Shown here one piece after another: positions 20,957-35,478 of a stretch of DNA of 40,000 nt (position 1 is its first letter; each line of letters begins with the position of its first letter). A program made the position numbers and the translations under genes. The notes beneath the pieces are model-generated. The model was not told the DNA's origin. It did no database searches and saw nothing but the letters and a program-made list of their open reading frames with translations. This stretch comes from Vibrio cortegadensis (GTDB lineage: Bacteria; Pseudomonadota; Gammaproteobacteria; Enterobacterales; Vibrionaceae): contig NZ_AP025472.1 in the NCBI RefSeq assembly GCF_024347395.1, positions 1,564,465 through 1,604,464 of the forward strand, written 5' to 3'.

Positions 20957-22106
20957 TAAATTCGATAAATCCATTCGAGCGGTTAAGCCTTACAAGCCAC
21001 GCGATAAGCATCAATTCAAAGTTGATCACAAAGCATTAAGTGACACTGTGACACCTGTTTTTATTGACCACTTAGCATGGTCGATGCCGATACGTTCACT
21101 TTCTTATTTGGATGGCGCTCTAGATAAAGATTATGTCCCTTACATGATGCCTGTCTTCCATCAACCGAAAGGTTTAACGGCTGAACAACAAAACGAATAC
21201 GTAAAACGTTATCAGCAAGAATTCTATTTTCGAATGAATGTGTGCTTTGAATTGTTCATGCAAAAAGAGTTTGGAATGTTCCTTTCTCCTATGCGTGGCC
21301 GTGGTCTTCATGGTTATGAGGATTCAATGACTATCTTTGACATCACCAGAACGCATGAACTTGGTTTTGTGGGAATCGGTGGTAACAACGACACCATATA
21401 CATTCAGATTAATGGTACTGGTTGCCAATACCTTTTTAATAAGACTACGCCAGCTCGTGTTCATTGGTTACTGACTGAGATTTTTGTAGTGCCTTCCCTA
21501 TCCCGCCTTGATTTGGCTGTGGATGATTTCACTGGGAATTTCGACGCTAAATACGCTGAACGCTGTTGGTATGAAAAAGCTTTTAAATCTTCGCCTGACG
21601 CTCGTCGCCAAGGTTCAATGACACCTCACGTTAAATATAACGATGGTGGTTCACTGGATGAGGAAGCCACTTTAATCGGTAGCCGTTCTTCTACTCGCTA
21701 CTGGCGTATCTATAACAAAAAGTTCGAAAGAAAAATTACTGACCCTGATGTGGTTTGGTATCGGAATGAAGTGGAGCTTAAAAAAATCTCCGTCGATTTT
21801 CTCTCTGACATATCAGCGTCGTTCGCGGGTCTTTGTGACTTCGCGGCCTCTATCGAACCGACACCACCCAAACGTCACGACACCATAAAGAAAAAAGCGA
21901 TTTTGGACATTATGGGGAAAGTGGCGTGGGCAAGAAAGCAATGCGGAAAAACCCTTTCAGAAGTTATCGACTTTTATAACGGTGACTTAGAAAAAGCGTT
22001 TGGTCACTTAGTGCCTGACAAATACAAGACAAGAACGATTGATATGCCAGACGTTCATAAATCATTGGTTCAAGCGCATCTAGGCATAATCGACGCCCCT
22101 TTTTAA
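20946..22106 (+). CDS. Rolling-circle replication initiator (Rep_trans / gene II-X, RstA/Cri-like)
   Basis: Start moved to MSADKFDKS (ATG at 20946, GGAG 10 nt upstream). Motifs LSRLDLAVDDFTG and TLIGSRSSTRYWRIYNKKFE...WYRNEVELKK match the family pattern I remember for filamentous-phage and plasmid Rep_trans proteins. Confidence 0.8.
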   Translation: MSADKFDKSIRAVKPYKPRDKHQFKVDHKALSDTVTPVFIDHLAWSMPIRSLSYLDGALDKDYVPYMMPVFHQPKGLTAEQQNEYVKRYQQEFYFRMNVCFELFMQKEFGMFLSPMRGRGLHGYEDSMTIFDITRTHELGFVGIGGNNDTIYIQINGTGCQYLFNKTTPARVHWLLTEIFVVPSLSRLDLAVDDFTGNFDAKYAERCWYEKAFKSSPDARRQGSMTPHVKYNDGGSLDEEATLIGSRSSTRYWRIYNKKFERKITDPDVVWYRNEVELKKISVDFLSDISASFAGLCDFAASIEPTPPKRHDTIKKKAILDIMGKVAWARKQCGKTLSEVIDFYNGDLEKAFGHLVPDKYKTRTIDMPDVHKSLVQAHLGIIDAPF

Positions 22107-22121
22107 TCGGAGAAACACACT

Positions 22122-22499
22122 ATGAGTACAGCAACTGCCTTTTTCGTACATGGCATTAAACACACTATCTTCAAGAACTCGGGCAATGCATCGGCTTCCA
22201 TCTACGTTGGCCGCGCATTGAAAGACTTTTCAAACGACAACATGGAAATCAAAGCGGCGGGTTACTTTGACAGTATTGAAGAATTTGAAAAGAACCGCTT
22301 TAAACATTTGGCTATTGAGGAAGTTTACGCTGAGAAAGTGATTAACAGCCGCGCTTTCGTCCCTTATCAGCAATATGAATTACGCACTGCGCCTATGCCT
22401 GATAACCCAATGCAATCGCACGTTGTTGAGATTATTCCTGTTGATGCAGAAGTTAAAAAGCACTTCATGGAATCCATGAAACAAACACCAACTAAATAA
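22122..22499 (+). CDS. Putative ssDNA-binding protein (gene V analogue), assigned by position only
   Basis: 125-aa soluble protein directly after Rep, where inoviruses place their ssDNA-binding protein. No motif-level support. Confidence 0.35.
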   Translation: MSTATAFFVHGIKHTIFKNSGNASASIYVGRALKDFSNDNMEIKAAGYFDSIEEFEKNRFKHLAIEEVYAEKVINSRAFVPYQQYELRTAPMPDNPMQSHVVEIIPVDAEVKKHFMESMKQTPTK

Positions 22500-22520
22500 A
22501 ATTCACATTGGGAGCTAATT

Positions 22521-22742
22521 ATGATTTGTGCAAAGGTTGTTTCTAACACTCTTCAAGTTATTGATTTAGCTCCCGGTGAAGCTTGCCAATTCGTGACTCT
22601 GTTACAGCAGTCTGATTTTGCAAACCCTGAAGCGTTTCTTACAAAAGAGATTGTTTTTACTTTGCTTTCTGCGGCTGCTGGCGTTTATGGATTGGTTTTT
22701 GTGATTGATATATCACTTCGTCAACTTGGTTTTAGAGGATAA
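22521..22742 (+). CDS. Small hydrophobic virion or assembly protein
   Basis: 73 aa with a C-terminal TM (IVFTLLSAAAGVYGLVFVIDISL), directly upstream of the major coat gene. Confidence 0.4.
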   Translation: MICAKVVSNTLQVIDLAPGEACQFVTLLQQSDFANPEAFLTKEIVFTLLSAAAGVYGLVFVIDISLRQLGFRG

Positions 22743-22746
22743 AACT

Positions 22747-22944
22747 ATGAAAAAACTACTTGTAGGTGTTGCACTTACTGCCGTTGCATCAACTCCAGCT
22801 TTTGCGGCTATTGATGTTTCTGCTGCGACTACAGCTATCACTACTGATGGTACTGCGGCAGTTAGCTCAATCGGTCAGGCTTTAATCGGTCTAGCTGGTG
22901 TTGCTGTTGTCTTTAAATGGGCTAAAGGTTCAATTTTCGGTTAA
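22747..22944 (+). CDS. Major coat protein (pVIII-like)
   Basis: MKKLLVGVALTAVASTPAFA/AIDVS... has a signal peptide, an acidic/neutral N-terminus, a hydrophobic core (ALIGLAGVAVVF) and a basic C-terminus (KWAKGSIFG). A GAGGA RBS lies upstream and a strong terminator follows. Confidence 0.85.
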   Translation: MKKLLVGVALTAVASTPAFAAIDVSAATTAITTDGTAAVSSIGQALIGLAGVAVVFKWAKGSIFG

Positions 22945-22960
22945 ACCTTTATGTGAAATC

Positions 22961-22988
22961 GGGGGCTTCGGCTCCCTTTTTTTAGGAT
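22961..22988 (+). terminator. Intrinsic terminator after the major coat gene
   Basis: GGGGGC-TTCG-GCTCCC hairpin (UUCG tetraloop, one G-U pair) followed by TTTTTTT. Confidence 0.8.
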
Positions 22989-22994
22989 TTAATT

Positions 22995-23078
22995 ATGCCT
23001 CTTTATCTAACACCTCAAGACCTTATTTGGGGCTTCGTTCTTCTCCTCCTTTGGGATGCCTTTCGTCGTTTATTTTAA
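22995..23078 (+). CDS. 27-aa hydrophobic peptide (pVII/pIX-like minor coat candidate; not in the ORF track)
   Basis: My translation is MPLYLTPQDLIWGFVLLLLWDAFRRLF. It is preceded by the same 13-nt GGATTTAATTATG initiation region as the pIII-like gene. Confidence 0.4.
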   Translation: MPLYLTPQDLIWGFVLLLLWDAFRRLF

Positions 23079-23090
23079 TTGGATTTAATT

Positions 23091-24578
23091 ATGAGTATTA
23101 AACAAAGCATTACTTTTTTATTTTTATTCTTGGGTGTTTCGTTTAATGCTTCGGCATATTTTGAAAATTATAAGGGTGAAAAGTTTGATTCTTTAGATAC
23201 GGCCTTAACATCATATTTAAATTCTTGTGAGGCTAATGTTTATACCGGGCGGGCTTCTTATATTAAATTCATTGATGGCAGGGTTTCTTCTTCAACTTCT
23301 CTTTACTTAAGGTATTACACTTATACAGATTCAAATTGTTCCAATCTTTATACTGGGGCTAACAATTGGACAACTATTTCTTTCACAAATAATGAATGTC
23401 CTGTTGGTGAAACGTTCAATCAAACTACTGGCGAGTGTGAATCACCTCCTGTATGTACAGATGATCAAGTTTTAGATCCAAACACTGGTGAGTGTGCAGA
23501 GATTCCCTTTTGCAAACGTCAATCTACTTTAGAAGCTATTTTTTCTGAGGAACAAGCTTGTGCGGCTTCAAAAGGTATTTTTAATCATAGCTGTGATGAA
23601 TTCCTTGATAAGTTAGATATGAAATGTACACAGCCTACTGAGTGTGTCATTGGTATGCCAAACTATCCTGATTGTTTGGGTGATTTAAACCCTACAGACC
23701 CACTTACACCGCCTGACGATTTTAATCCTGACCCTTCGAACCCTTCTACTCCTGCGCCTCCATCATTTGATAAAGATGAACCCGATTCAGTTACGCCAGA
23801 TGACACCACTGATAAGGCTGTATTAACGGCTTTACAAAATTTGAATCGTGATAATAACAAAGCTTTTACAGCATTAAATACAGATTTGAATACTGGCTTT
23901 ACCTCGTTAGATAACAAACTTAAAACACTGAATAAATCCAATGATGCAATTGGTAAAGCTATCAAAGAGCAATCACAACAAGATGTTGCCATTCATAACG
24001 CTCAAACCTTATTAATGACTCAACAAACTGGTGCCATTATGAATGGTACTACACAGGTAGTTCAGGGGCTTAATACTCAAACAACACAGCTAAAAGGTTC
24101 TCTTGACGGTGTTGCTCAAGCTATTGGCAATTTACCGTCACAACTAAATGGTGATGTTACTAGTCAAGGTTGTTCTTCTTTTAATTGTACTGGTAGTGCT
24201 CCCAGTTGTTTTCTAGCTAAAGAACGCTGGAGAGTTAATTGTGATGAATTAAAGAATGAAGAATCTGCAACTGAGCAAGGTGCTTTGTTGACTGATACTT
24301 TTCAGGCGTTAACTGAATCAGCTACTGATGAACATGGTGCTTATACCAGTGTATTTACTGATGCCAATGGTTCTGTTGATGAAATGCTTGATGCTTATAC
24401 GTCTGATAATGGTTTCAGCTTTTCTTCTGGTTGTCCTTCACCTCGCACGTATGATTTAAAAATTGCGGTTTGGTCAATTGATTACACTCCTTTTTGTACA
24501 CTAGCTCTCGTATTTCGTGGGCTTCTTTTAGCTTCCGCCTCAATAGCTTCTTTTTTAATGGTAGCTAAATTCATGTAA
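23091..24578 (+). CDS. Minor coat / host-adsorption protein (pIII-like)
   Basis: It has a signal peptide (MSIKQSITFLFLFLGVSFNASA), a Cys-rich N-terminal region, a Pro/Asp-rich linker (DPLTPPDDFNPDPSNPSTPAPPSFD) and a C-terminal membrane anchor. This is the standard pIII architecture and position. Confidence 0.7.
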   Translation: MSIKQSITFLFLFLGVSFNASAYFENYKGEKFDSLDTALTSYLNSCEANVYTGRASYIKFIDGRVSSSTSLYLRYYTYTDSNCSNLYTGANNWTTISFTNNECPVGETFNQTTGECESPPVCTDDQVLDPNTGECAEIPFCKRQSTLEAIFSEEQACAASKGIFNHSCDEFLDKLDMKCTQPTECVIGMPNYPDCLGDLNPTDPLTPPDDFNPDPSNPSTPAPPSFDKDEPDSVTPDDTTDKAVLTALQNLNRDNNKAFTALNTDLNTGFTSLDNKLKTLNKSNDAIGKAIKEQSQQDVAIHNAQTLLMTQQTGAIMNGTTQVVQGLNTQTTQLKGSLDGVAQAIGNLPSQLNGDVTSQGCSSFNCTGSAPSCFLAKERWRVNCDELKNEESATEQGALLTDTFQALTESATDEHGAYTSVFTDANGSVDEMLDAYTSDNGFSFSSGCPSPRTYDLKIAVWSIDYTPFCTLALVFRGLLLASASIASFLMVAKFM

Positions 24579-24603
24579 TAAAAATAACTCATAGGTGATT
24601 TTT

Positions 24604-24984
24604 ATGGGATTCGTATATGGTGCCCTTTCTCTTGTTTTTACTTGGTTACGCAGTGCAATGCCTTGGCTTCTCGGTGCTGTCGGTGCTTCATTTTCTAACT
24701 GGATTGTAAGCGCGGGGTTTGGTGTCGTTGTCTTCTCTGGCTTTAATATTTTGACTAGTCGCCTCATTGGTACGGCTGTCAACTCGCTGAACGGCCTTGG
24801 TGATATTGGTGGGTTTGGTGCTGATATTGTTATGCTTCTCGGCTATATGTGGCTAGATAAAGCTCTTAACCTTGTTATTTCAACGGGTGCTTTTTTAATG
24901 GCGATTAAAGGAGTTCGTCAAGGTATTGCTATGCGTCAAGCTTGGTGGAAACCAGGTCAGAAAACTGGAGGAATGGAAGGTTGA
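24604..24984 (+). CDS. pVI-like minor coat membrane protein
   Basis: ~126-aa very hydrophobic protein between the pIII-like and Zot-like genes (an alternative GTG start lies at 24595). Confidence 0.6.
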   Translation: MGFVYGALSLVFTWLRSAMPWLLGAVGASFSNWIVSAGFGVVVFSGFNILTSRLIGTAVNSLNGLGDIGGFGADIVMLLGYMWLDKALNLVISTGAFLMAIKGVRQGIAMRQAWWKPGQKTGGMEG

Positions 24985-26312
24985 TTTATTTAAGAACTGG
25001 ATTGCCAGGGGCGTCTAAAACTCTTAACTCTTTACGTGAAATTGTGCTTTCTCACGATTCGGGGCGTGAGTATTACTATACAAACATCAAATTACTTATG
25101 TTGGATATTGATGTGGCCTGCTCGTTTTCTGGTTGGTATTACGGCTGGTATTTTCCAAACTTAAAAGACAAGGCTAGTATTCGTAAATTATCTAAGATAA
25201 TGAAACCAATTCACGATGATGGTGAATTTATCACTCTAAATGATGTTCCTTGGCTTCGCTCTCAATATGATAGCCACAATCATTTTGAGACTTGGCTTTA
25301 CTGGGTTCGTCGTGTTTATCCTAAGAAGAAACTTGAGAAGCTAGAATCTATTCTTGATGCTGCTCCTGAAGATACACAAGATAAGTTTGATTTAGTTCGA
25401 CCTCTTAATCTTGATTTTAGAAACTTTCCAGACCCAAATGACTGGCCTACTTTACCTAAGCGTTCAGTCATTCTGGTTGATGAGGTTCAACAATTCTTTC
25501 CACCTCGTGGTGTTGGTTCTCGCGTACCAAAGGCTATAGCAGCCCTTGAGACTCATCGACATGGTGGTTATGACCTTCATTTTGTCACACAAGACAGAAC
25601 CCTTTGTGATGCTAATTTACGTAAATTAGTTGGTCGCCATGTTCATTATTTCAATGCTCTTGGTGGTAAAAAGGTAACTCGCAAAGAAGCACCTAAATGT
25701 TTTGATCCTAATGATTATCATCAGTCTCAAACTGCTTCCAAAAAGATGATTAGCCATGATAAAAAGTTCTATGGTGTTTATTGGTCTGCTGAAATACATA
25801 CCCATAAGTTCAAATTTCCATTCATGGGCTTTGTTGCTATTTTCTTTTTATGTTTGATCCTTTATTCCGCTTATTCTCTATCATCTCAATTATTTGGTGG
25901 TTCAGACTCCAGTTCTCCAGCTGCGCCAACTCAACCAACGCCAATACAAACTGATTCACCTGACATAACAGAAAATCCTGTTGCGGATTTTGTTGATGAG
26001 TTATTAACTGATGTTTATATATCAGGCTCTGTTGTAGAACAGTTCTCTGATGATGTTGTTTACCACTATACATTTGTACGAAGTTCTGACGGTGCTGTTT
26101 TCTATCCCGAAGCAATGGAATTAACACTTGATCCATTAACGCCATGTTTGGCGAATATTAGAATTGGTGAATTGATACGGCCTGTTACTTGTAATCCGTT
26201 TTATGTTCGTGATTCATGGAAAGAAGAAGATATTGAAGATTCAGAAGATGGACAAGCAATTGCCAGTGCTGAGAGTTCAGAGAAATACAAACCCAATATT
26301 AAACTATTCTAA
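24981..26312 (+). CDS. zot: Zot-like assembly ATPase (pI homologue)
   Basis: Likely TTG start at 24981 (TTGA overlap with the upstream stop, GGAGGAATGGAAGG upstream). Similar to CTX-phage Zot as I remember it: GLPGASKT versus GAPGSYKT, VILVDEVQQFFPPR versus FLFIDECGRIWPPR, and ETHRHGGYDLHFVTQ versus DMHRHHGWDICLTT. It has a central TM and a C-terminal periplasmic domain. Confidence 0.85.
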   Translation: MIYLRTGLPGASKTLNSLREIVLSHDSGREYYYTNIKLLMLDIDVACSFSGWYYGWYFPNLKDKASIRKLSKIMKPIHDDGEFITLNDVPWLRSQYDSHNHFETWLYWVRRVYPKKKLEKLESILDAAPEDTQDKFDLVRPLNLDFRNFPDPNDWPTLPKRSVILVDEVQQFFPPRGVGSRVPKAIAALETHRHGGYDLHFVTQDRTLCDANLRKLVGRHVHYFNALGGKKVTRKEAPKCFDPNDYHQSQTASKKMISHDKKFYGVYWSAEIHTHKFKFPFMGFVAIFFLCLILYSAYSLSSQLFGGSDSSSPAAPTQPTPIQTDSPDITENPVADFVDELLTDVYISGSVVEQFSDDVVYHYTFVRSSDGAVFYPEAMELTLDPLTPCLANIRIGELIRPVTCNPFYVRDSWKEEDIEDSEDGQAIASAESSEKYKPNIKLF

Positions 26313-26720
26313 TTGCGCCCAGAAGCGCACCCAATGAACCTACCTACAAATGCGGATCAGCCCCGCAGGGATAAGCAAAGCACGTAGTGCAAGCGAAGCA
26401 CCAAGCCGCCCGACTTTGTTAACTGTGCCGTATGTCTAATCGGCGCGGTTAGCTTCACTATCCTTTGATCGTCCCACTCCCCACACCCTGCCAGAATGCT
26501 TTTAGTCTTTTAAAGGCTTGCGAGTGTCGAGCATGTCTTAATGATTTTTGTATTGGTTCGCGTGCGTGAGCAAAGGGATGGGAAGAGCGGAGCGCCGCCC
26601 TGCTCACGCCAACCCCCGTCATGTATTACGGGGGTACTATCCACGGAACTTTCAACCTTCCCCGACTATTCTCAAGTGTAACGCGCCAGTGTTTGAGCGT
26701 TAGCGAGTCTATATTACAAG
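26313..26720. other. ORF-free, G+C-richer structured intergenic segment (candidate inovirus origin / packaging / att region)
   Basis: No ORF of 60 aa or more on either strand. There are tandem hairpins: GCGTGAGCA (26564-26572) pairs with TGCTCACGC (26601-26609), and CCCCCGT (26613-26619) pairs with ACGGGGG (26628-26634). Confidence 0.5.
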
Positions 26721-26723
26721 TAT

Positions 26724-26746
26724 AAAAAAACCGCCCAATTGGGCGG
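26724..26746 (-). terminator. Intrinsic terminator of the exported-protein gene
   Basis: Perfect 16-nt palindrome CCGCCCAATTGGGCGG (26731-26746), followed on the minus strand by a 7-nt T-run. Confidence 0.8.
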
Positions 26747-26885
26747 CCGACTTCAAGCAAAGGTGTTCAAATTCTTAGAGTTCATAAACTGAACAAGCTT
26801 TACATTACAGAGTAATTTTGGCTCTCTCAATTCTCAATATAAATTATTAATACTCTCTCACATTTCATTGTAATTGATATGCTTC

Positions 26886-27488
26886 TTAGTAATTTTGAGC
26901 TCTTAATTGTGCAATTTTTCTTGCATACTCAGCATCAATTCTGTGAATTTCACGATCCCTTTCACGCTGTAGTCTTTTTATCTCTCGATTAATGTTCACG
27001 TAATTATCAGCCTGGTACTGGATATCACACCTGCTACTTACATCATTAATCGCTTTGTTCGAACCTGACAAATTGAATGATGTATTCATCTCACGCCTTC
27101 CAAAGACATGCACTTGCACATAAGCAGTTGTACCTTGCTTTAATTCATAAAGGATCCGTTTATCTACATTTCTAATCGCTCCTCCTTTATAGGAGGATGT
27201 GAACATATTTCCTTTCAAGTTATACACTCGGCCATTATCAATCTTAATTCTAAAATCGACACTTTGATTTGGTGTCGCAATATTATCTTTACCTGAAAAA
27301 GTTAGAAACAAATCTTTATCATAACGCCCTGAATCACAACGAAAACCCAATGAATTACCATGTGCATAGGTTGTACGCTCATACACCTGCTTGTTATTCA
27401 TATTATCAAAACGCATAGTTTCATTAAACGATGCATTACATACACTTGAAAACATACAAATGGTGAACCCCAAACGAAACCATTTCAT
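26886..27488 (-). CDS. Exported protein with a C-terminal charged coiled coil, function unknown
   Basis: 200 aa with signal peptide MKWFRLGFTICMFSSVCNA/SF, a probable beta-rich body with two Cys, and the tail INREIKRLQRERDREIHRIDAEYARKIAQLRAQNY. It is divergent from the rexA-like gene and very AT-rich. Confidence 0.6.
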   Translation of the reverse strand: MKWFRLGFTICMFSSVCNASFNETMRFDNMNNKQVYERTTYAHGNSLGFRCDSGRYDKDLFLTFSGKDNIATPNQSVDFRIKIDNGRVYNLKGNMFTSSYKGGAIRNVDKRILYELKQGTTAYVQVHVFGRREMNTSFNLSGSNKAINDVSSRCDIQYQADNYVNINREIKRLQRERDREIHRIDAEYARKIAQLRAQNY

Positions 27489-27742
27489 TAATTAAACCTC
27501 CTTACAGTTAAATTTGAGCAACTGATTGCACTATAAGATTTTCTAGGTTGCTCTTATGAGATTTATCTCAAAAATATACAAATAGGCCCAATGTCAACCT
27601 TAGTAAAAGAACAGCACTATATTCACACTGATTTTGTTAACTTTTTTTGTACAGCTCTATTATTATTGAATGACATATCTAATGTTGAGGAGTACCATGC
27701 GAATAAATAAAATTAATAATTAATGACTTAAAGGTTGTATAC

Positions 27743-28687
27743 ATGCGAGTTAGTTACTTTGGCTACCATTTGAACAATATAGACAATCAACACAAAACAT
27801 TGTTTGATATTCGCCCTTTTTTGCATTCTTTTTGTGCTTTAGATGCTGTTCAGTATAAAAATAATTTCACACACTCAGGCGAGCATTTGTATCTTTTTCC
27901 CGTTCATGGTGATGTATTTATGTTCGTAATGACACGTAGCAGTGACATTATCCGAAAAGTAAACACTAGAGAAATTACGGTAGAACAAATTCGTGATCTT
28001 TTAGGCGAAGATAACCAACTGGGGTTTGCTTCATATGTCCTTATCACTGAAAATTGCTTTGGATTCGGTTCAACTTTACTTGCACCTAAATCTGATGTTT
28101 TTATAGAATTTATTAACACAATCTTCATATCTCTTGGTATTGTTAATTGGAAATTAATTCCTTTTGCTTTAACTCATCAAGCTACACGTGCAGAAGCCAT
28201 GGAAATGTCGATTATAGGAACCACTGTGATCGAAATTTCGAAGGAAAATACTTTTGCAGAAGATTTCTTGAGACAATTAGGGATGACTACTGAGGAAACT
28301 CATAATTTAGAAGGCTTTGAATTGACATTTAAGCCTCGGTCAAGACAAAACATTAAGCCCGTTATTACAAACGTATTACAGCAGGTACCCGATGATGGCA
28401 TTACTAAACTGATTATCAAAGCTAAAAATGAAGTATCAGGGCACATGACCGATTTGTACCTAGTTAACTCTGGAATCTTACAAGATGATGTTAATAACTC
28501 TAGTGATCTGGCCATTGCCAGAAACATGGTAACTAAAAAAACCAACAACACCCTATTAACTGAAAAACTTGAGGAGTTTACACAAAATGAAGACCTCTCG
28601 GAAAGCACTATTGACGCTATTTCTCGTTATAATCACATCACTGCCTGGACCGATTTTGTATCTACTGTACAAACTGTTAGTGAATAA
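27743..28687 (+). CDS. rexA: RexA-like abortive-infection sensor protein
   Basis: 314 aa. Several blocks resemble lambda RexA as I remember it: HLYLFPVHGDVFMFVMT versus YLYIHKIDGKTFLFTKT, LGFASYVLITENCFGFG versus LGFPSFLFVEGDTIGFA, FELTFKPRSRQNIKPV versus LDIVIKPKFKRDIKKV, and IIKAKNEVSGHMTDLYL versus SLRAKDEAGDILTEHYL. Confidence 0.7.
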   Translation: MRVSYFGYHLNNIDNQHKTLFDIRPFLHSFCALDAVQYKNNFTHSGEHLYLFPVHGDVFMFVMTRSSDIIRKVNTREITVEQIRDLLGEDNQLGFASYVLITENCFGFGSTLLAPKSDVFIEFINTIFISLGIVNWKLIPFALTHQATRAEAMEMSIIGTTVIEISKENTFAEDFLRQLGMTTEETHNLEGFELTFKPRSRQNIKPVITNVLQQVPDDGITKLIIKAKNEVSGHMTDLYLVNSGILQDDVNNSSDLAIARNMVTKKTNNTLLTEKLEEFTQNEDLSESTIDAISRYNHITAWTDFVSTVQTVSE

Positions 28688-29051
28688 GGTATTAATTGAA
28701 CCTATTGTTTTAGTCGAACAGAAAACAAATATTGCCATTATATTAGCGACATTTGCGTTTACGATGATGGGTTTTTTAGCGGCTGTTATTACTATTTTCT
28801 TTTCGTTCGCTAAATCGAGAACGTTCAAGAAATTCAGCCGTGAAGGTCGTTTTGGCGTATTTTTTACTACTTATTATTACTGTATTATTTCACTCGCTCT
28901 AACCATGTGCTTTGCTTTGGTTACTTTAGGTAAAGGCACCTCTATATGGGCTATGCAAACAGCACTGATTACGACAGTAAATAGCTTATTTCAAATCTGC
29001 TTGATTACTTTTACTATCATTAATTTGAGTAAAAGGGCGATGAAGGAATAG
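28587..29051 (+). CDS. rexB: RexB-like four-TM membrane protein
   Basis: 154 aa from the ATG at 28587 (GAGGAG at 28571-28576). It has four hydrophobic helices, and the loop and tail resemble lambda RexB from memory (FAKSRTFKKFSREGRF versus IGSRTRRLAKIREYGY; FQICLITFTIINLSKR versus IHICILVFQLYNLTRE). It overlaps the rexA-like 3' end by 101 nt in another frame. Confidence 0.65.
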   Translation: MKTSRKALLTLFLVIITSLPGPILYLLYKLLVNKVLIEPIVLVEQKTNIAIILATFAFTMMGFLAAVITIFFSFAKSRTFKKFSREGRFGVFFTTYYYCIISLALTMCFALVTLGKGTSIWAMQTALITTVNSLFQICLITFTIINLSKRAMKE

Positions 29052-29055
29052 ATCT

Positions 29056-29074
29056 AGGCTCCTTTCTGGAGCCT
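29056..29074. terminator. Hairpin between convergent rexB-like and xafT-like genes
   Basis: AGGCTCC-TTTCT-GGAGCCT has a 7-bp stem. There is no strong T-run, so confidence is moderate to low. Confidence 0.4.
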
Positions 29075-29079
29075 TCGTA

Positions 29080-29451
29080 CTAACTGTTCATTATTAACGC
29101 AATACTACGAGCATATTTAAGCAACTTTGACATTGTTTTTACATCTAATTCTGCTTGAATTTCTAACAAAGCAATTCCAGTTAAAATCTCTTGTGGGGTC
29201 ACTAATTGGCCTGTCGGTAGTTCCAGTTTATCATTGCGCATGATGAATAGATTCCAATTATCTGATGGGGCAAGCTCTTTACCTTTATACATTTTCATTA
29301 ATCGCCGACACTCTGGCGGAATAGCTTTTCCTGCGTCCCAAAGCTTGACCGTCCTCACACTTTTAAAACATAGTTCAGCCGTCTTTTCTATACTAATTCC
29401 ACAAACTAATTCACGAAAAATATAATTTTTAGTCATTTCGTGGTACTTCAT
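29080..29451 (-). CDS. HTH + DUF3653-like protein (XafT-like candidate Xer activation factor), copy 1
   Basis: Likely ATG at 29451 (MKYHEMTKNY). It has an HTH-like segment TAELCFKSVRTVKLWDAGKAIPPECRRLM, then W..F......L.LPTGQLVTPQEI. It is a paralogue of the gene at 29779 and starts ~50 bp from dif-like site B. Confidence 0.6.
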   Translation of the reverse strand: MKYHEMTKNYIFRELVCGISIEKTAELCFKSVRTVKLWDAGKAIPPECRRLMKMYKGKELAPSDNWNLFIMRNDKLELPTGQLVTPQEILTGIALLEIQAELDVKTMSKLLKYARSIALIMNS

Positions 29452-29503
29452 TGATAACTCTCTCAAATGAGAAAGATATTATAAAAAGTGCGTATGCAAC
29501 TTG

Positions 29504-29532
29504 ATTTACCATAAGGGCGCATAATACGCACC
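29504..29532 (-). other. dif-like site B with a 7-nt spacer (attP/dif hybrid junction)
   Basis: The plus strand reads ATTTACCATAA-GGGCGCA-TAATACGCACC. The XerC arm is identical to site A. The XerD-type arm has one mismatch (C for A). The orientation matches site A. Confidence 0.7.
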
Positions 29533-29778
29533 GAGGGATTGTTTATTAACATTTGGTAAAACATTGATTAACGCATACATAAGTAATTGATACTTATGCC
29601 GAATTTATATTTAAACCCTATTTAATAACGTTTTGAAATACTTATGATTACTGGCGCTTGCTTTACGTAATCACAGCAAAAAGTCTCTTTTTCCACTGAG
29701 CGACATTTTGTCACGTGAATTGTTAAAAAATCATAAGAAAAAAATATTTCGTCAGTTATTTTATTTGTGAGGCAAATC

Positions 29779-30201
29779 ATGTTTTATGAGTCATTTAAAG
29801 TTCTGTTTTGGCGTGAGTTTACCTCTCACCGCCAAGGTGCTGAGTTTTTCCATGTGAAGATTGTCACAGTTCGACGTTGGCTAGACGGCAAAATCCCTGT
29901 CAATCCGATGGCTGAAAAACTCTTAATCATCAAATCACTTGGTTACTTGCCTAATGATATGCGTTGGCGTGGCTTTCGTATCTGTGAAAAACGTGCGGTG
30001 CTTCTTACCCCAACTGGACGCGAGTTCAGCCCTAAAGAATTAGAAAGCTTTGTGTTTTGGCGTGATGAACATCGACAATTGGTTGAGCAACATGGTCATG
30101 TGGATTACCCAAAGGTTTACCCTGCAAAAGAAAATGTGTTGCCGTTTCGTGGCGGTCGCCGAATGCAAGCCGCCCCGTGGATACCGACTAAATTTAAATA
30201 G
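29779..30201 (+). CDS. HTH + DUF3653-like protein (XafT-like), copy 2
   Basis: ATG at 29779 (MFYESFKVLFW, GAGG 6 nt upstream). It has AEFFHVKIVTVRRWLDGKIPVNPMAEKLLI, then MRWRGFRICEKRAVLLTPTGREFSPKELE. It is divergent from copy 1 across site B. Confidence 0.6.
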   Translation: MFYESFKVLFWREFTSHRQGAEFFHVKIVTVRRWLDGKIPVNPMAEKLLIIKSLGYLPNDMRWRGFRICEKRAVLLTPTGREFSPKELESFVFWRDEHRQLVEQHGHVDYPKVYPAKENVLPFRGGRRMQAAPWIPTKFK

Positions 30202-30204
30202 ACG

Positions 30205-30232
30205 TAAAAAAGCCCGCATTAGCGGGCTTTTT
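30205..30232. terminator. Bidirectional intrinsic terminator
   Basis: AAAAAA-AGCCCGC-ATTA-GCGGGCT-TTTT between convergent genes. Confidence 0.85.
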
Positions 30233-30238
30233 CTTTCC

Positions 30239-31216
30239 TCAGAAAGGAATATCATCATCAAAATCCGAAGAAGGTGGCGGTGGCGGCACTTGTACTGTTC
30301 GCTTTTCAATGGTAATAAACGCAGAATTCCAATTTTCAGGCGTGTAAACTTTAAGCGATTTATTCTCGTCAAAAATCTCTTCTGATATGGTTAACTCAAA
30401 TGAGTTATTGTACCAAGACAAATCGCTTCCAAAAGGAAATTCATACTCTTTATAGCCATATGTTTTCAAAATTTCACCAAGTTCTTGAATATTTTGAAAA
30501 TAAACCCGATGACCTATTCCTAGCTTAGTTCTCAACTCACTAAATGCTGGGTGGCTGTTCATCAGGATATTTTGAATTGCGTCACTTCCTCTATTTTTCT
30601 CTTCGCTTAAAAAAGTAACCAACGTTTTTAAAGTAGCTGAGGTTCTATTTATCTCATCAATTAAATTAACTTCTTTTCGTCGAGAGCTCTCACTCAAAAG
30701 GCTCTGAAAAAGTCCTGCCCACTGCTCTTTCAAATGATTAGTGATATCAACTACAGATTCAAATGCTTGTATTTGATTATTGTTAGGAAGTGAATGTATC
30801 TCATCGAGGAATTGAAAAATTCTATTATCATCTACTGATGCATACTTGATGCTGTCATTATCTTTATTTACTTTATATGTTTGATATTCAGCGTATACCG
30901 TTTTTTCAATAAAAATATAAAGCTGCTTTCCTTTTTTAACAGCCGTAGTTAACTCCACATTTGATACGGAGTGACTGCTATTCCCATGTTGAGATTGGGA
31001 GCCAAATCGACCGCCAATGACACCAACGACAATATCGCAAATTTCAATTTCTTTATAGCAATACTCTTCTAAACGTTTTTCTGAACCATAAGGAATATTG
31101 CCTTTTTCATTCAAAACCGGGTCATACCCTTGCTCTTTAATGAATCGCTCTAAATCATTTCTTATATATTTCAAGTCATAATAAGTCGAGCTTACAAAAA
31201 CACGGGGCTTTGCCAT
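30239..31216 (-). CDS. DUF4062 (TIR/deoxyribosyltransferase-like) N-terminal domain protein with an SSB-type C-terminal tail
   Basis: Likely start MAKPRVFVSSTYYDLKYIRNDLERFI (ATG at 31216; the ORF is open to 31252). The pattern VFVSST..DL...R..L......GY.PV..E.......E.C..EI..CD..VGVIG.R.G...S....E...A...GK matches DUF4062 as I remember it. The C-terminus verified from DNA is TVQVPPPPPSSDFDDDIPF*. Confidence 0.7.
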   Translation of the reverse strand: MAKPRVFVSSTYYDLKYIRNDLERFIKEQGYDPVLNEKGNIPYGSEKRLEEYCYKEIEICDIVVGVIGGRFGSQSQHGNSSHSVSNVELTTAVKKGKQLYIFIEKTVYAEYQTYKVNKDNDSIKYASVDDNRIFQFLDEIHSLPNNNQIQAFESVVDITNHLKEQWAGLFQSLLSESSRRKEVNLIDEINRTSATLKTLVTFLSEEKNRGSDAIQNILMNSHPAFSELRTKLGIGHRVYFQNIQELGEILKTYGYKEYEFPFGSDLSWYNNSFELTISEEIFDENKSLKVYTPENWNSAFITIEKRTVQVPPPPPSSDFDDDIPF

Positions 31217-31296
31217 GTTAAACCTATAATGTAAAAATTGATAATTAATCATATCACTTTAATCTCATACATAAGAATGATGACTCATACAAATAA

Positions 31297-31332
31297 TAAA
31301 AAAGCCGAACCCCATCACGGAGTTCGGCTTTT
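31297..31332. terminator. Bidirectional intrinsic terminator separating the DUF4062 cassette from the corticovirus-like late genes
   Basis: An A-run, then AGCCGAAC (31303-31310) pairing with GTTCGGCT (31322-31329), then TTTT. Confidence 0.8.
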
Positions 31333-31462
31333 GGTTTCCAGTGCAGCAAGCAAAAGCGCACTAAGGTGTTTAATGATTTATAAAACAACCACTTGAACGT
31401 TAACAATGTGTGCGTTAGATGTAAACCATATGGCACGTATGTTTTGAAATGACTCGCACGCC

Positions 31463-31648
31463 CTAGCCCTTTTCTAATGTTTCTAGTACCAACACACGGT
31501 CAGAAACGGCGCGCAATCCCTTTGATAACTCTTGAATGATGTGGTTTTGGTTTCGGATGTTTATGATCATCAAAATACCCAACACCAAAAACTGAGGTGA
31601 AATGCCCCATTCCACCAAGGCGTTAAACAGCGTGCTTTCCATCATCAC
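31463..31648 (-). CDS. Small membrane protein, lysis-cassette accessory candidate
   Basis: 61 aa with one TM (ISPQFLVLGILMIINI). It overlaps the upstream holin-like gene and is the last gene of the operon. Confidence 0.4.
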   Translation of the reverse strand: MMMESTLFNALVEWGISPQFLVLGILMIINIRNQNHIIQELSKGLRAVSDRVLVLETLEKG

Positions 31649-31850
31649 CGCCCTTGCCTTTCAATTCATCCCGGAATGCTTCCCACAACCCAACCACCGC
31701 AGGAATGGCAAGACCAACCGCACCGCCAAGATTTACGCCCGTTTGGGTAATTTCAGCACTGAATAAATGACCGTAGCCCGAAGATGCCGCAATCACTGAA
31801 CCAAGCAGCACAAGACCGCGCCACGTTGATGTTTGTTTAAGTTTTAGCAT
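31623..31850 (-). CDS. Holin-like two-TM protein
   Basis: 75 aa with two hydrophobic helices and a charged C-terminus (DELKGKGGDDGKHAV), downstream of the putative muralytic gene. Confidence 0.45.
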   Translation of the reverse strand: MLKLKQTSTWRGLVLLGSVIAASSGYGHLFSAEITQTGVNLGGAVGLAIPAVVGLWEAFRDELKGKGGDDGKHAV

Positions 31851-31862
31851 GTGTATTCCTTA

Positions 31863-32318
31863 CTATGCGAGTTTGACGCCTTGCATGGCATCGCTGAATG
31901 AGTAATGGCGACCCACTTCCATGATTGACATAGAGTGCAGCACTTTAGCCAATAGTTGGTCATCGTTTAGGTTGATGGATTCATTGACGCCAACACCGAC
32001 CTGTTTTGCTACGAACTGTGCGTAATTCTTCGTATCATTTTCTACTGGCGGTGCGAATCGGTTAATGATTTCGTTTAGATTGTCGAGTCCATGCGCCCGT
32101 TGATAGGTTCGCAAGGTTTTAGCGCCCGCCCGAAAGCCATATTTATGATGGGTATAGCTTTCAAATTCAGCATCACGGGAAAAGCTTGTTTCCCCTTGCC
32201 AATCGTTGCCTTTTCGAATGTTCAGCGGGTTATTGTTGCGAATTCCGCGGATGGTTTTTTTTGTCATATAGAGTGCAAAGCCCCCAAAGAAAATGAAGAT
32301 AATCAGATATAAACGCAT
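31863..32318 (-). CDS. Membrane-anchored phage protein with an RNNNPLNIR motif (putative muralytic/structural)
   Basis: 151 aa with an N-terminal TM and the motif GIRNNNPLNIRKGNDWQGE, which recurs in phage virion-associated or cell-wall-active proteins as I recall. Function not certain. Confidence 0.45.
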   Translation of the reverse strand: MRLYLIIFIFFGGFALYMTKKTIRGIRNNNPLNIRKGNDWQGETSFSRDAEFESYTHHKYGFRAGAKTLRTYQRAHGLDNLNEIINRFAPPVENDTKNYAQFVAKQVGVGVNESINLNDDQLLAKVLHSMSIMEVGRHYSFSDAMQGVKLA

Positions 32319-32320
32319 GG

Positions 32321-33340
32321 TTACACCTTGTAAAAATCAAACCCTGTCGGCATGGATGAATATTGAAAACTCATTTGCATGGCTTCAAGCTGTGCCGCCG
32401 ATGGGATATGGTCAACGGGATATTGGAACACCTTATAATCGCTGCCATGCTCGGTGATGGTTTGCACATGATAGCCAGATGCCAACATATGACGCGCCAT
32501 GCCAAACGGCGCATGAATTGCGTTGTGGTTAAAGCGAATCAAGCCCGCGCCCAAATCTTCAAAACCTATGGGTTTCATACAATCGGTCGCTTGGTAGTAT
32601 GGCGGCGCATGAGTAAATTCAAGCTTGGCAAGGTCGGCATCATCTGCCACAAACCCACACACGCCACGTTGAAGCCCAACAATGCCGGAATTTCTGACTT
32701 CCAAATACAACGCAACGTATGACGGTTGTTCAACCTGTACATTATTTTTCAGCGCACCAGAATCACAAGTCACAAAGCCGTCACCCGCAAAATCGGTGTG
32801 AATTTTTGAAGCTACTTTGTCGCCTAGCGTATGGCTGCCATCTTCACTCATGTGAATGAATCGAAAACCCACTTCCACCTCCGCGCCCGCCAATGCCATG
32901 ACATTGAACGCCGCACGAACAGACTTGCTTTCATCATTTTGTGGTGCGACCGGACGCAACACTTGATACATGGTGAAACCTTGGCACATGATTTGTGCAA
33001 AGTGCCGATTGGGTAACGTGTTGAGGTAATAATTACCCACACGGGACACGGGCGCGGTAATGCCCGCACCTGGTTGAACTTGAATTGCCCAACCATGCGC
33101 CAACATGAATTCAGCGCGCCCACCTAATGAGGTGACATTTAATGAAAATGGACGGTCAGAGCGTGATTGCGTGGTGACAAAACCACGGGCGCACATGCCA
33201 TGAAAATGACCGTTATCAATGAGGTTTGTGACTGCACCACCTGCCAACTTGCCCAACTCTTCGGCAAGGTATTCAATTTTGTTTCGGCTACTGCCATGCG
33301 GCAAATTTTTAAAAATTTCGTTCATGGGGTAAAGCTCCAT
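32321..33340 (-). CDS. Putative vertex/spike (receptor-binding) protein
   Basis: 339 aa, similar in size and position to the PM2 spike protein P1. There is no motif-level support. Confidence 0.35.
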   Translation of the reverse strand: MELYPMNEIFKNLPHGSSRNKIEYLAEELGKLAGGAVTNLIDNGHFHGMCARGFVTTQSRSDRPFSLNVTSLGGRAEFMLAHGWAIQVQPGAGITAPVSRVGNYYLNTLPNRHFAQIMCQGFTMYQVLRPVAPQNDESKSVRAAFNVMALAGAEVEVGFRFIHMSEDGSHTLGDKVASKIHTDFAGDGFVTCDSGALKNNVQVEQPSYVALYLEVRNSGIVGLQRGVCGFVADDADLAKLEFTHAPPYYQATDCMKPIGFEDLGAGLIRFNHNAIHAPFGMARHMLASGYHVQTITEHGSDYKVFQYPVDHIPSAAQLEAMQMSFQYSSMPTGFDFYKV

Positions 33341-33350
33341 AATTTGAGTG

Positions 33351-34010
33351 TTAAGACTCTAAGATAAATACGCGGTCAGTTGCAGCGCCCGTGAGTGCAA
33401 TGAGTGCGGAAGATTCAATATCAATCCGCTCACCCGCACTAAGTGGGTAAGCATTGTTAATCAACACATCACCTGTATTGGCGGTTGCTGCCTTGATGGT
33501 CACTTTGAAACGTGATGAATCAAAAGGAAGTTCAACGGGCAATGCTGAATCTTGTGCATTGATGCTTTTACTTCTCTTGAGTACCACAGGCGTTCGCTGT
33601 GAGACTTTAATCACTTGGTCGGGCGCAATTTCAACGGGCGGTAATGTTTCAAGGCTAACGGTTTGACCTGCTGCAATTTCCACCGCAGGAAGTGAATCAA
33701 TCGACGCGGTTAAGTGTTGGTTTTCTGCAATCACCATTGCGGGCATCACGCTTACTTCAAGCTGTTGCCCTTCCATTGGTGGCGTAAAATCTCCCACGCC
33801 ATGCTCAAACACCAAGCGACCAACGCCCGTGATGAAAATGCGCCCAAAGCGACTACCTGTGTTTTTATACAGTGATTTTTGCGTAAGCGTAAAAACCGCA
33901 CCTGTGGACTCAATTTCAATCTGAATTTTGCCCGTGGATAACTCCACAAACAGCCATTCAGAATCAAGCGTGACAGGGATTTTTTGTCCTTCAATAAGGT
34001 TCAATTCCAT
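33351..34010 (-). CDS. Putative structural protein
   Basis: 219 aa with a beta-rich composition. Its start overlaps the upstream stop by 1 nt. Confidence 0.35.
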   Translation of the reverse strand: MELNLIEGQKIPVTLDSEWLFVELSTGKIQIEIESTGAVFTLTQKSLYKNTGSRFGRIFITGVGRLVFEHGVGDFTPPMEGQQLEVSVMPAMVIAENQHLTASIDSLPAVEIAAGQTVSLETLPPVEIAPDQVIKVSQRTPVVLKRSKSINAQDSALPVELPFDSSRFKVTIKAATANTGDVLINNAYPLSAGERIDIESSALIALTGAATDRVFILES

Positions 34011-34426
34011 TACTTAACCGCCTTATAAGTGACAAAACCCAACACGGCAGCAACGAACATCATTAAGTACAAATTCATTGAATTTTGCTTACTTTGCCCG
34101 CCGTCCTTATTGAATTTGGCAAGCTCCATCATCGCGTTAATGTTTTTTGTGTTTTGCGTGGCTTGATTACCCGCAAGCCCTGCCATCATTTGCAAATTTT
34201 CACTGTTGCTTGAGCTGTATTCCTCCAACACACCGGAGGCAAAATCTGTGTTGATTTCGTGCATGTTTTCGGCGGCTTGAATTGCGCCGTGGTCGGTAGC
34301 GGTCACATTGATAGTGGAGTCATTGACTCCACTAATCGCCGTCCCTAAGTTGTCACCACTAATGGCATTTTGACCGCTAACGTTAGTGGTTTGGGTTTTG
34401 TTACTGGATTTGGATTTTCCACCCAT
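34010..34426 (-). CDS. C-terminally anchored virion membrane protein candidate
   Basis: 138 aa, Ser/Asn/Gly/Gln-rich, with C-terminal TM LYLMMFVAAVLGFVTY. Confidence 0.45.
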   Translation of the reverse strand: MGGKSKSSNKTQTTNVSGQNAISGDNLGTAISGVNDSTINVTATDHGAIQAAENMHEINTDFASGVLEEYSSSNSENLQMMAGLAGNQATQNTKNINAMMELAKFNKDGGQSKQNSMNLYLMMFVAAVLGFVTYKAVK

Positions 34427-34428
34427 GA

Positions 34429-34800
34429 TTACACCTTCATTTCCATGTGGGTTACGTCACCACATGCGTGTTCTTCGGTACTCAGGCGGCGACACAATCG
34501 CGCCACCAATGGAAAATAGGTTTCTGCTGAAATAGACGATAATCCCGCGCTTTTTACGTAGGCTTTCAACTCTCGCATTGCCGGAATAACGCCGCGTCCA
34601 GAAACGCCCCAAAGAAAGTAAGAATGACCGATAATCTCACCCGCCACCGTGACACGGTAACTATCATCAGATAACTCATAAAGGCTTACGCGCCCTGCGT
34701 TCACCTCATGTTTGAGTTTTTCAAATTCAGCCGGACAAGCTCGAAATGCTACTTTCAACCGCGCCAATGCGCGGGGACTATCAGAAACCAATTCAATCAT
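34429..34800 (-). CDS. Hypothetical phage protein
   Basis: 123-aa soluble protein with an ATGA overlap on the upstream gene. Confidence 0.4.
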   Translation of the reverse strand: MIELVSDSPRALARLKVAFRACPAEFEKLKHEVNAGRVSLYELSDDSYRVTVAGEIIGHSYFLWGVSGRGVIPAMRELKAYVKSAGLSSISAETYFPLVARLCRRLSTEEHACGDVTHMEMKV

Positions 34801-34991
34801 CTTTTAAGTGCCACCAAGGCAATCACTGCCACTATGCTCAATAACAGCCAAGGCTTTGCGCCTTTTGAGCCTCCCATACTAATCCCGCCCACGCTTTGCC
34901 CTGCGTTGGTGGTATTGGCGGCGGTCGATGGTCCCGCAGAACCACCCGTGAAACCGCCACCCCCTGTTAAACTGGTTAAACTGCCTAACAT
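34797..34991 (-). CDS. Gly-rich small membrane protein
   Basis: 64 aa with a Gly-rich N-terminus and C-terminal TM WLLLSIVAVIALVAL. It resembles the small internal-membrane proteins of PM2-type viruses. Confidence 0.45.
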   Translation of the reverse strand: MLGSLTSLTGGGGFTGGSAGPSTAANTTNAGQSVGGISMGGSKGAKPWLLLSIVAVIALVALKR

Positions 34992-35000
34992 TCGTCCCCC

Positions 35001-35135
35001 TTAAAAGAACTTGAGCATGGCAAGAATCGCCACCAATAGCGCCGCGAACCATAAGAGGTTTTTGGCGCCATCACTGAGACTAAACCCGACCCATACACCA
35101 GTAAGCGCAACCACCGGATAAACAATCAATGGCAT
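35001..35135 (-). CDS. 44-aa two-helix membrane peptide (not in the ORF track)
   Basis: My translation is MPLIVYPVVALTGVWVGFSLSDGAKNLLWFAALLVAILAMLKFF. It fills the gap between flanking genes exactly. Confidence 0.4.
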   Translation of the reverse strand: MPLIVYPVVALTGVWVGFSLSDGAKNLLWFAALLVAILAMLKFF

Positions 35136-35136
35136 G

Positions 35137-35478
35137 TTATTTCCCCTTCACTGCGAAATAGACCGCGCCCGCCAATACCAAGAACCCGCCACCAATGGCT
35201 AAATACATGCCGTAGTTATTCGGCGATTGGCGATAAACCACATCGCCATTAGGTTGTTGGTAATCGTTGCCGTCCCCACGGTGTGCGCTTGGGTTCGCTG
35301 AGTTAGATTGTTGCGCGTCTTCGTTGAGTTTGTTGGTGATAAGGTCGGGCGCAATGTCCCCGACTAAATCCACCGCACCACCAATGAGTTCACCGCCACT
35401 TTCTAAGATGCTTTCCCACCACGAACTTGACGAGGACTCGTTAAAAATATCCATATCGGTTTCCTTTGGTACTGGCAT
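35137..35478 (-). CDS. Small virion membrane protein candidate
   Basis: 113 aa with C-terminal TM MYLAIGGGFLVLAGAVYFAV. Confidence 0.45.
   Translation of the reverse strand: MPVPKETDMDIFNESSSSSWWESILESGGELIGGAVDLVGDIAPDLITNKLNEDAQQSNSANPSAHRGDGNDYQQPNGDVVYRQSPNNYGMYLAIGGGFLVLAGAVYFAVKGK

Follow-up and report, generated by a model that had tools for sequence, protein, structure and literature searches.

A divergent RexAB gene pair in the cargo region of a filamentous prophage at a dif site of Vibrio cortegadensis

The RexAB gene pair

A stretch of 40,000 nucleotides from the genome of Vibrio cortegadensis (NCBI RefSeq assembly GCF_024347395.1, contig NZ_AP025472.1, positions 1,564,465 to 1,604,464 of the forward strand), in the following called the window, contains two overlapping genes which a preliminary description of this DNA had likened to rexA and rexB, the exclusion genes of phage lambda. 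Both open reading frames (ORFs) were present as described, one encoding 314 and the other, overlapping one 154 amino acids (aa):

27743-28687, + strand: rexA, 314 aa, with RexA profile, sequence and fold matches
28587-29051, + strand: rexB, 154 aa, four transmembrane (TM) segments; its first 101 nt, coding for TM1, lie inside rexA in another frame

The genes are adjacent on the same strand and overlap by 101 nt, an arrangement that corresponds to the Rex layout of PADLOC and DefenseFinder. The longest reading of the rexB ORF runs from a TTG at 28569 to 29051 and gives 160 aa; the ATG at 28587, which gives 154 aa, is preceded by GAGGAG (28571-28576) with the right spacing for a Shine-Dalgarno sequence. 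The GC content of the region from 27 to 29 kb was 0.335 and 0.358, compared to ~ 0.38–0.44 in the chromosome and the phage backbone, in line with the AT-rich block that had been claimed. Likewise, the pair was found between inovirus genes and a XafT-like gene, the latter on the - strand at 29080-29466, and the nearby dif-type site was located 453 bp downstream of rexB, at 29504-29532. The whole window contained neither transfer RNA genes nor Rfam families, and a look-up of the exact RexA sequence gave no match.

Identity of RexA and RexB

The 314-aa protein matched the Pfam RexA profile PF15969 over its full length (E=1.7e-58, 198.5 bits at a cutoff of 25, residues 1-233 of the 235-position profile), the RexA profile of PADLOC (E=3.1e-62, 208 bits) and PHROG 12654, "RexA-like exclusion protein" (E=3.3e-35). 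Lambda RexA (8TWQ) was the sole match in a phmmer search of the PDB (E=6.6e-24), and BLASTP aligned residues 1-263 with lambda RexA at 24% identity (E=5e-27). A structure was modelled with AlphaFold2 from 25 homologues (predicted local distance difference test, pLDDT, 76.5; predicted template modelling score, pTM, 0.68) and compared with the PDB by Foldseek. Such a comparison with the published RexA had been proposed in the preliminary description. The only significant matches were the two 8TWQ chains B and A (E=5.2e-15 and 2.2e-14, probability 1.00, template modelling score 0.50 and 0.55), and beyond these chains nothing was found in the PDB under E=0.05. The root-mean-square deviation between model and 8TWQ was 13.7 Å, which suggests that the predicted domain orientation differs. 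Residues R219 and K221 of lambda RexA are needed for DNA binding and for exclusion of T4rII (PMC11077077). In the BLASTP alignment they correspond to K226 and K228, so the basic pair is kept, and A227 is invariant in the 25-member alignment. By homology, the 314-aa protein is a RexA, the predicted cytoplasmic sensor and DNA-binding component of the system.

The 154-aa protein matched the RexB profile of PADLOC over its full length (E=8.5e-24, 82.5 bits). Profile hidden Markov models, another check named in the preliminary description, were thus positive for both proteins, for RexA with Pfam and PADLOC and for RexB with PADLOC. Lambda RexB was found by BLASTP with 21% identity (E=5e-5), and an hhalign comparison of a 14-member clade alignment with lambda RexB gave 96.7% and E=4.6e-10 over 135 of 144 residues. 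The Kyte-Doolittle profile shows four hydrophobic segments at residues ~ 8-26, 40-77, 97-115 and 127-145, and lambda RexB has four comparable ones. A search for a relative of RexB with a solved structure found none. Judged by these profile and sequence matches, the 154-aa protein is a true, more divergent RexB.

RexA and RexB form a conserved unit

A RexB-like ORF followed rexA in 21 of 21 RexA-bearing loci that were fetched outside the window (loci are given as L numbers where they have to be told apart). In each of the 15 clade members examined, that of the window among them, the first 68-143 nt of rexB lie within rexA in a constant frame relation; this overlap codes for TM1 with its conserved PGP motif. 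RexB of the clade is given a later start by PGAP (GTG 28680 in the window) and by other gene callers, which yields proteins of 115-125 aa that have lost TM1; the shortened form is also detected by PADLOC. In lambda, a gap of 15 nt separates rexA from rexB, in contrast to the overlap of 101 nt found here. The conserved out-of-frame overlap probably couples the translation of rexA and rexB and fixes their ratio.

The closest relative (L026) encodes a RexA with 77% and a RexB with 81% identity. Comparison with L026 gave values for non-synonymous (pN) and synonymous (pS) differences of 0.11/0.74 in rexA and 0.095/0.93 in rexB. Within the overlap, the rexB frame (0.18/0.50) was more constrained than the rexA frame (0.28/0.20). 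From these substitution patterns both genes are judged to be under strong purifying selection; with pN/pS low in both, neither rexA nor rexB is decaying. This bears on the idea that rexAB is a decaying, non-functional remnant of a cassette gained by recombination, for which one could cite the AT-rich, foreign-looking block, the frameshifted xafT/p15 remnant that is abutted by the closest relative and the break of a public draft assembly just upstream of rexA. However, neither ORF is interrupted and both match the profiles over their full length, selection in both genes is strong, and the motifs, the Shine-Dalgarno sequence and the overlap architecture have all been kept; we therefore regard a remnant as very improbable.

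The pair lies inside a Vf33-type inovirus prophage

The genes and sites that define the surrounding element are:

19357-19436, strand not assigned: chromosomal flank at the XerD side of the site equivalent to dif1, conserved with ~ 97% identity in Vibrio sp. 03-59-1 (L028) and 86% in V. cholerae
19512-19539, + strand: dif-like site 1, left junction, ATTTAACATAA-TACACA-TAATACGCACC, with chromosomal-type XerD arm and 6-bp centre
19514-19891, - strand: repressor, RstR-like (helix-turn-helix, HTH, plus DUF3693), terminal inovirus gene; Pfam DUF3693 2.8e-13, 44% identical to the Vf33 ORF beside attP
20892-22106, + strand: rolling-circle replication initiator, pII/RstA-like; Pfam Rep_trans 1.3e-17, 99.5% identical in L028
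22122-22499, + strand: DUF1293 protein at the position of the single-stranded DNA (ssDNA)-binding protein (pV); Pfam 8.9e-45, aligns with gp2 of Vf33 (annotation: pV-analogous)
22747-22944, + strand: major coat protein, pVIII-like, with a signal peptide followed by a hydrophobic core and a basic tail; its counterpart in L028 matches Pfam Phage_Coat_B
23079-24578, + strand: pIII-like adsorption protein, by position and size; homologous to the Vf33 and L028 counterparts
24595-24984, + strand: pVI-like minor coat protein; Pfam DUF2523 1.7e-07
24942-26312, + strand: Zot/pI assembly ATPase, last backbone gene before the cargo; Pfam Zot 2.5e-13, 99% identical to P0026 of Vibrio sp. 03-59-1
29080-29466, - strand: xafT-like gene, 128 aa, terminal inovirus gene; PHROG 1668 9.4e-56
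29504-29532, + strand: dif-like site 2, right junction, ATTTACCATAA-GGGCGCA-TAATACGCACC, with phage-type XerD arm and 7-bp centre as in Vf33 attP

The published motif NYKNWMCATAA(N)6-12TAATRYGHABY (PMC12715192) has exactly two matches in the 40 kb, at 19512-19539 and 29504-29532. Site 1, of which L028 has an equivalent, is the only match in the window to V. cholerae dif1 with three or fewer mismatches, and no such match was obtained in 100 shuffles. It has retained the chromosomal XerD arm and centre, and site 2 the phage-type arm and centre. Left of 19311, ordinary chromosomal genes were found (cytochrome oxidase, FIST protein, hybrid histidine kinase). In V. cholerae, ~ 70 bp separate the flank block from the dif1-type site that adjoins the CTX prophage at its ctxB end. 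Since the same block of ~ 80 bp flanks the dif1-type site in V. cholerae too, the left side is chromosomal and the locus is the equivalent of dif1.

Between the two sites, the inovirus core genes (Rep, coat, pVI and Zot) are present, so that the inovirus looks complete from 19514 to 26312, and the order of the terminal rstR/xafT pair is that of Vf33 and L028. The xafT-like protein is 67% identical to the Vf33 ORF beside attP, 69% to its counterpart in L028 and 66% to that in L033; with NCBIfam NF040522 (VC1465/XafT) it gave 3.3e-10 and 40 bits at a cutoff of 70. In the free genome of Vf33, homologues of the xafT-like gene and of the repressor flank an attP with a 7-bp centre, and this gene order is the layout expected of a prophage linearised at attP. 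On this evidence from gene order and junctions, the region 19512-29532 (10.0 kb) is a Vf33/"CTX-I"-type inovirus prophage with rexAB inside. The preliminary description had suggested that the pair may be part of a filamentous phage genome, and the synteny with Vf33 together with the two dif-like junctions indeed places it there.

The flank block (window 19357-19436; L028 4303-4382; L035 748-790) lies 70-105 bp from a dif1-type site in each case, with differing neighbouring genes, and carries inverted motifs resembling the XerD arm (TTATGGTAAAT and TTATTGTTAAAT). One inverted arm of the XerD type (19409-19419), 92 bp away from site 1, was considered as a second half of attP, as in the paired inverted sites of CTX, but was rejected because the block flanks dif1 outside CTX in V. 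cholerae and is absent from IMG/VR.

Compared with L028, the repressor (19514-19891) is 58% and the N-terminal half of the pIII-like protein (23079-23860) 46% identical, and Rep, pVI and Zot are 99-100% identical. This mosaicism between sister phages suggests that they differ in immunity type and receptor specificity while having their backbone in common. Between zot and the cargo block, a GC-rich intergenic region (26313-26680) is 96-99% identical in sister inoviruses, and the last part of it (26611-26711) has 81-88% identity to two further filamentous phages of Vibrio (PQ189344 and OP628074). The region had no Rfam match and its folding was barely above that of shuffled sequences (z=-1.9); it may serve as an origin or in packaging.

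RexAB is part of an exchangeable cargo block

Beside the pair itself, the following features were found in or next to the region between zot and the xafT-like gene:

26680-29169, strand not assigned: swapped cargo block, the hypervariable region with orf200, rexA and rexB; BLASTN homology to L028 extends as far as 26679 and begins again at 29170
26886-27488, - strand: orf200, 200 aa, predicted to be secreted and to have a beta-sandwich and a C-terminal coiled coil; divergent from rexAB
27670-27698, + strand: candidate sigma-70 promoter of rexAB, ATGACA-17-TACCAT, from a consensus scan
29056-29074, strand not assigned: hairpin AGGCTCC-TTTCT-GGAGCCT, located where rexB and the xafT-like gene converge, found by eye

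A Zot of 99% identity is encoded by Vibrio sp. 03-59-1 and three metagenomic contigs. The DNA homology to L028, at 96-99% through 26679, is lost over the block, returns at 29170 and ends at 29531; the homology of L029-L031 ends at 26682-26707. The slot is filled in L028 by two unrelated genes, coding for 150 and 181 aa, and in L029 by a third set. The break in homology together with the unrelated genes in L028 and L029 identifies the 2.5-kb block as swapped cargo, and the earlier view of the pair as cargo is thus well founded, since sequences with a 99%-identical Zot hold different genes in the same slot. The slot genes of L028 and L029 had no PADLOC match, and no repeats bounding the block were found.

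A homologue of orf200 was absent from the 21 other RexA-bearing loci, and one is encoded in a V. fluvialis inovirus (L033 10001-10612) beside a type II restriction-modification system; orf200 is therefore independent cargo and not part of Rex. The gene is restricted to Vibrio (5 clusters) and recurs antisense to zot in inovirus accessory regions. Its structural model (pLDDT 61) gave generic beta-sandwich matches, none of them at E<=1e-3.

In the cassette of L026, which is 75% identical, the -35 element and A2/T6 of the -10 element are conserved, and sequences farther upstream could not be aligned. Conservation of -35 and -10 amid an unalignable upstream region suggests that the cassette may bring its own promoter. 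Upstream of rexA, a mini-ORF of eight codons (27697-27723) that has a strong Shine-Dalgarno sequence was rejected as a feature of the cassette, as it is not conserved in L026. The hairpin downstream of rexB may be a bidirectional terminator.

The public draft genome of V. cortegadensis (GCA_030410015.1, contigs 17 and 35, here L001 and L032) breaks inside zot and again between orf200 and rexA, so that rexA was deposited as a partial protein and the prophage was split over several contigs; L032 contains just a partial Zot.

A double-jelly-roll prophage follows in tandem

To the right of site 2, from 29533 to 40000 and running off the window, a second dif-type prophage follows in tandem. It is a tailless double-jelly-roll element (PM2/corticovirus-like), whose right end and the third dif-like site fall outside the window, with the following genes:

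29767-30201: p15 gene, DUF3653/xafT-like, 144 aa, 42.7 bits to NCBIfam NF040522
30239-31252: DUF4062 cargo gene, no PADLOC match
35487-36329: PM2-type coat protein
36974-37699: packaging ATPase
38846-39955: GPA-type Rep

A tandem layout of an inovirus and a double-jelly-roll prophage has been described before (PMC12715192, with 337 CTX-I and 258 double-jelly-roll prophages). A further reading would assign rexAB to the double-jelly-roll prophage or a chromosomal island and not to the inovirus. A rexAB of 48% identity does lie inside such an element (L002/L003), and the cassette with the 77%-identical RexA abuts a gene fragment of the p15/DUF3653 type. In the window, however, site 2 and an inovirus-type xafT gene separate rexAB from the double-jelly-roll element, the homology to L028 is back at 29170 and ends exactly at 29531, and the synteny with Vf33 makes xafT, attP and the repressor adjacent. 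That the pair belongs to the double-jelly-roll prophage or an island is, in our view, extremely unlikely.

In L002 (10001-11312) and L003 (8003-9221), rexAB is found on the opposite strand between the genes for the coat protein and the packaging ATPase of the double-jelly-roll element. The double-jelly-roll prophage of the window has an unannotated ORF of 94 aa (36660-36944, + strand) in this slot, and the coat/ATPase gap may be a second cargo slot in double-jelly-roll phages.

Genomic context of the relatives

The relatives of the pair are found in diverse surroundings. Those of L002/L003, which are metagenomic, lie in a double-jelly-roll element as described above; that of L026 is next to a frameshifted xafT/p15 (DUF3653-type) remnant; L004, L006-L010 and L021 have rexAB next to tyrosine integrases and L023 next to a serine recombinase. 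In L014 (Methylophaga, 9209-11318), a CI-like repressor (HTH_3 + Peptidase_S24) is encoded directly upstream on the same strand, so the lambda-like immunity arrangement occurs in the marine clade too. Outside the window, none of the 21 loci with RexA had inovirus genes. Of 50,697 phage genomes on deposit, a relative is encoded in only 19 records; almost all of these belong to lambda-like tailed phages of enterobacteria, with no inovirus and no Vibrio phage among them. IMG/VR gave no match when it was scanned with the single RexA sequence, and alignment-based scans yielded five viral and six genomic RexA loci, none with inovirus genes. The preliminary description had called the pair unusual for lying outside a lambdoid immunity region; the location holds, but is less unusual than supposed, as the sampled relatives live in many non-lambda contexts.

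Proposed function and alternatives

The homology to lambda Rex, the four-TM topology, the conservation of the pair, the purifying selection, the borders of the prophage and the swapping of the cargo are properties of the locus itself. Beyond them, we consider it likely that the pair is a divergent RexAB cassette which, in the zot-xafT slot of an inovirus at dif, acts by abortive infection. The carrier is integrated at the dif site of chromosome I, which it entered through XerCD of the host. By analogy with lambda Rex and the Rex-like system Sucellos of Vibrio, the following course is proposed. The cassette would be transcribed in the lysogen from its own promoter. RexA, probably a DNA-binding dimer, would sense an infection-specific DNA or protein-DNA signal, such as an intermediate formed when an incoming lytic phage replicates or recombines, and would then activate the membrane protein RexB, leading to collapse of the membrane potential. 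The infected cell would stop supporting growth of the phage, and neighbouring lysogens and their prophage would be spared.

Several points weigh against this proposal. The anti-phage and membrane phenotype is a prediction, and even for lambda Rex the trigger and the mechanism of the channel have been established only in part; in that phage, DNA binding showed no simple correlation with exclusion (PMC11077077). A filamentous phage makes replication intermediates continuously and would have to avoid triggering its own Rex. The putative rexAB promoter is a consensus match with modest conservation only, and the terminator scan did not call the hairpin at 29056-29074, which has no T-run. Finally, RexB scored 14.8-15 bits with Pfam PF15968, under the curated cutoff of 27; this profile matches 6 of the 14 clade RexB members, with a best E-value of 1.9e-7. 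Since gene callers shorten RexB and the Pfam RexB model misses this protein, Rex may be under-annotated.

A different role was also considered, in which the pair serves the life cycle of the phage or excludes competing integrative elements and does not act by abortive infection against lytic phages. RexA would bias the RstR-type lysogeny switch as in the CI/Cro switch of lambda, RexB would stabilise phage proteins, and together they would exclude rivals that integrate at dif. According to PMC11077077, lambda RexA works on the bistable switch without RexB; in L014, rexAB is located directly downstream of a CI-like repressor, as in lambda; and the second prophage at the same dif site makes competition between elements plausible. 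On the other hand, rexAB is ~ 8 kb away from the repressor, and its slot is swapped freely among sequences that are ~ 96-99% identical in the regions they share, so the inovirus backbone does not depend on rexAB. Besides, the strict pairing of RexA with RexB fits a two-component exclusion function, and elsewhere the same slot is occupied by a type II restriction-modification system and by published defence systems. A role in the life cycle or against competing elements therefore appears unlikely.

If abortive infection by RexAB were true, a ssDNA phage which replicates chronically and yet tolerates the Rex that it carries would help in approaching the trigger of Rex, the subject of 70 years of work on rII and Rex. 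By its distribution, the pair is a clear case of one defence cassette that occurs in inovirus, double-jelly-roll and tailed prophages. A more far-reaching idea, which is possible but in our eyes rather doubtful, is that Rex of this clade travels as an autonomous cassette, bringing a promoter and having the start of rexB embedded in the end of rexA, among the prophages of three unrelated virus realms, those of the filamentous ssDNA inoviruses, the tailless double-jelly-roll phages and the tailed phages. The non-killing carrier with rolling-circle replication would have to stay invisible to RexA, providing a natural system for defining the signal of RexA, and the locus would be a testbed for Rex as an arbiter of competition between two prophages at one dif site.

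Comparison with known systems

RexAB is a textbook system and defence cargo in this hotspot has been published, so the locus is a new example and not a new principle. It resembles RexA/RexB of lambda (PF15969/PF15968; 8TWQ) in being a prophage-borne unit of two genes, rexA followed by rexB on one strand, in the fold and the basic DNA-binding pair of RexA and in a RexB of ~ 150 aa with four TM segments. It differs in that the identity is only 24% (RexA) and 21% (RexB), in ~ 50 extra residues at the C-terminus of RexA and in its location outside the immunity operon, with the repressor (19514-19891) ~ 8 kb off on the other strand; location in the immunity region is typical of lambda but not defining for the Rex family. 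Furthermore, the carrier is a ssDNA filamentous phage integrated by XerCD and not a tailed lambdoid phage. The conserved overlap of rexA and rexB is one modest structural peculiarity.

Sucellos (sclAB; bioRxiv 10.1101/2024.07.02.601686), from the V. cholerae superintegron, is likewise a Rex-like system of two genes in Vibrio, and its anti-phage activity needs both of them. According to its authors the Rex Pfam domain misses Sucellos, whereas RexA of V. cortegadensis scores 198 bits, and its carrier is an integron cassette and not an inovirus; by description the two are set apart. Rex-like pairs of actinophages (Sbash gp30/31, CarolAnn gp44 and Butters) exclude other phages, and the RexA homologues of actinophages dimerise and bind DNA non-specifically (PMC11077077). 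By description, these pairs are also set apart from the one reported here, as they belong to tailed phages of Actinobacteria and mostly lie near the immunity repressor.

As for carriers, ctxAB of CTXphi are also accessory genes located after zot, at the attachment-site end of a Vibrio inovirus integrated at dif, and the chromosomal locus is shared as well, including the conserved flank next to dif1. Unlike here, the cargo is a toxin and not a defence system, and the xafT-like gene is a feature of the present prophage. We take the attP of the latter to be of the double-stranded VGJ/Vf33 type; that of CTXphi is a folded single strand.

A further likeness is to the hypervariable region (pHVR) of the "CTX-I" Vibrio inoviruses (PMC12715192; PMC11630473), which share the terminal rstR-like and xafT-like genes, the dif-like attL/attR and cargo between zot and xafT. 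With 10.0 kb, the prophage is in the range of the published mean (9.5 +/- 1.7 kb), it is likewise followed in tandem by a dif-type double-jelly-roll prophage with a p15 gene, and its zot-xafT cargo region, 2.8 kb in length, falls among the larger ones published. When the literature was searched for RexAB together with filamentous phage, only reviews were found, and "Rex" was absent from the main texts of PMC11630473 and PMC12715192 and from the ISME J supplements searched, the supplementary tables of PMC12715192 not being covered. Defence systems are known to fill the accessory hotspot of filamentous and tailless Vibrio prophages (PMC11630473, 2024; PMC12715192, 2025), and the idea that a chronic filamentous phage gives defence to its host, raised in the preliminary description, has already been published for Vibrio inoviruses (PMC11630473, PMC12715192). 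With this precedent and with relatives in many non-lambda contexts, the pair is less unusual than had first been thought; with it, RexAB joins the defence systems that filamentous prophages of Vibrio carry in their zot-xafT hotspot.

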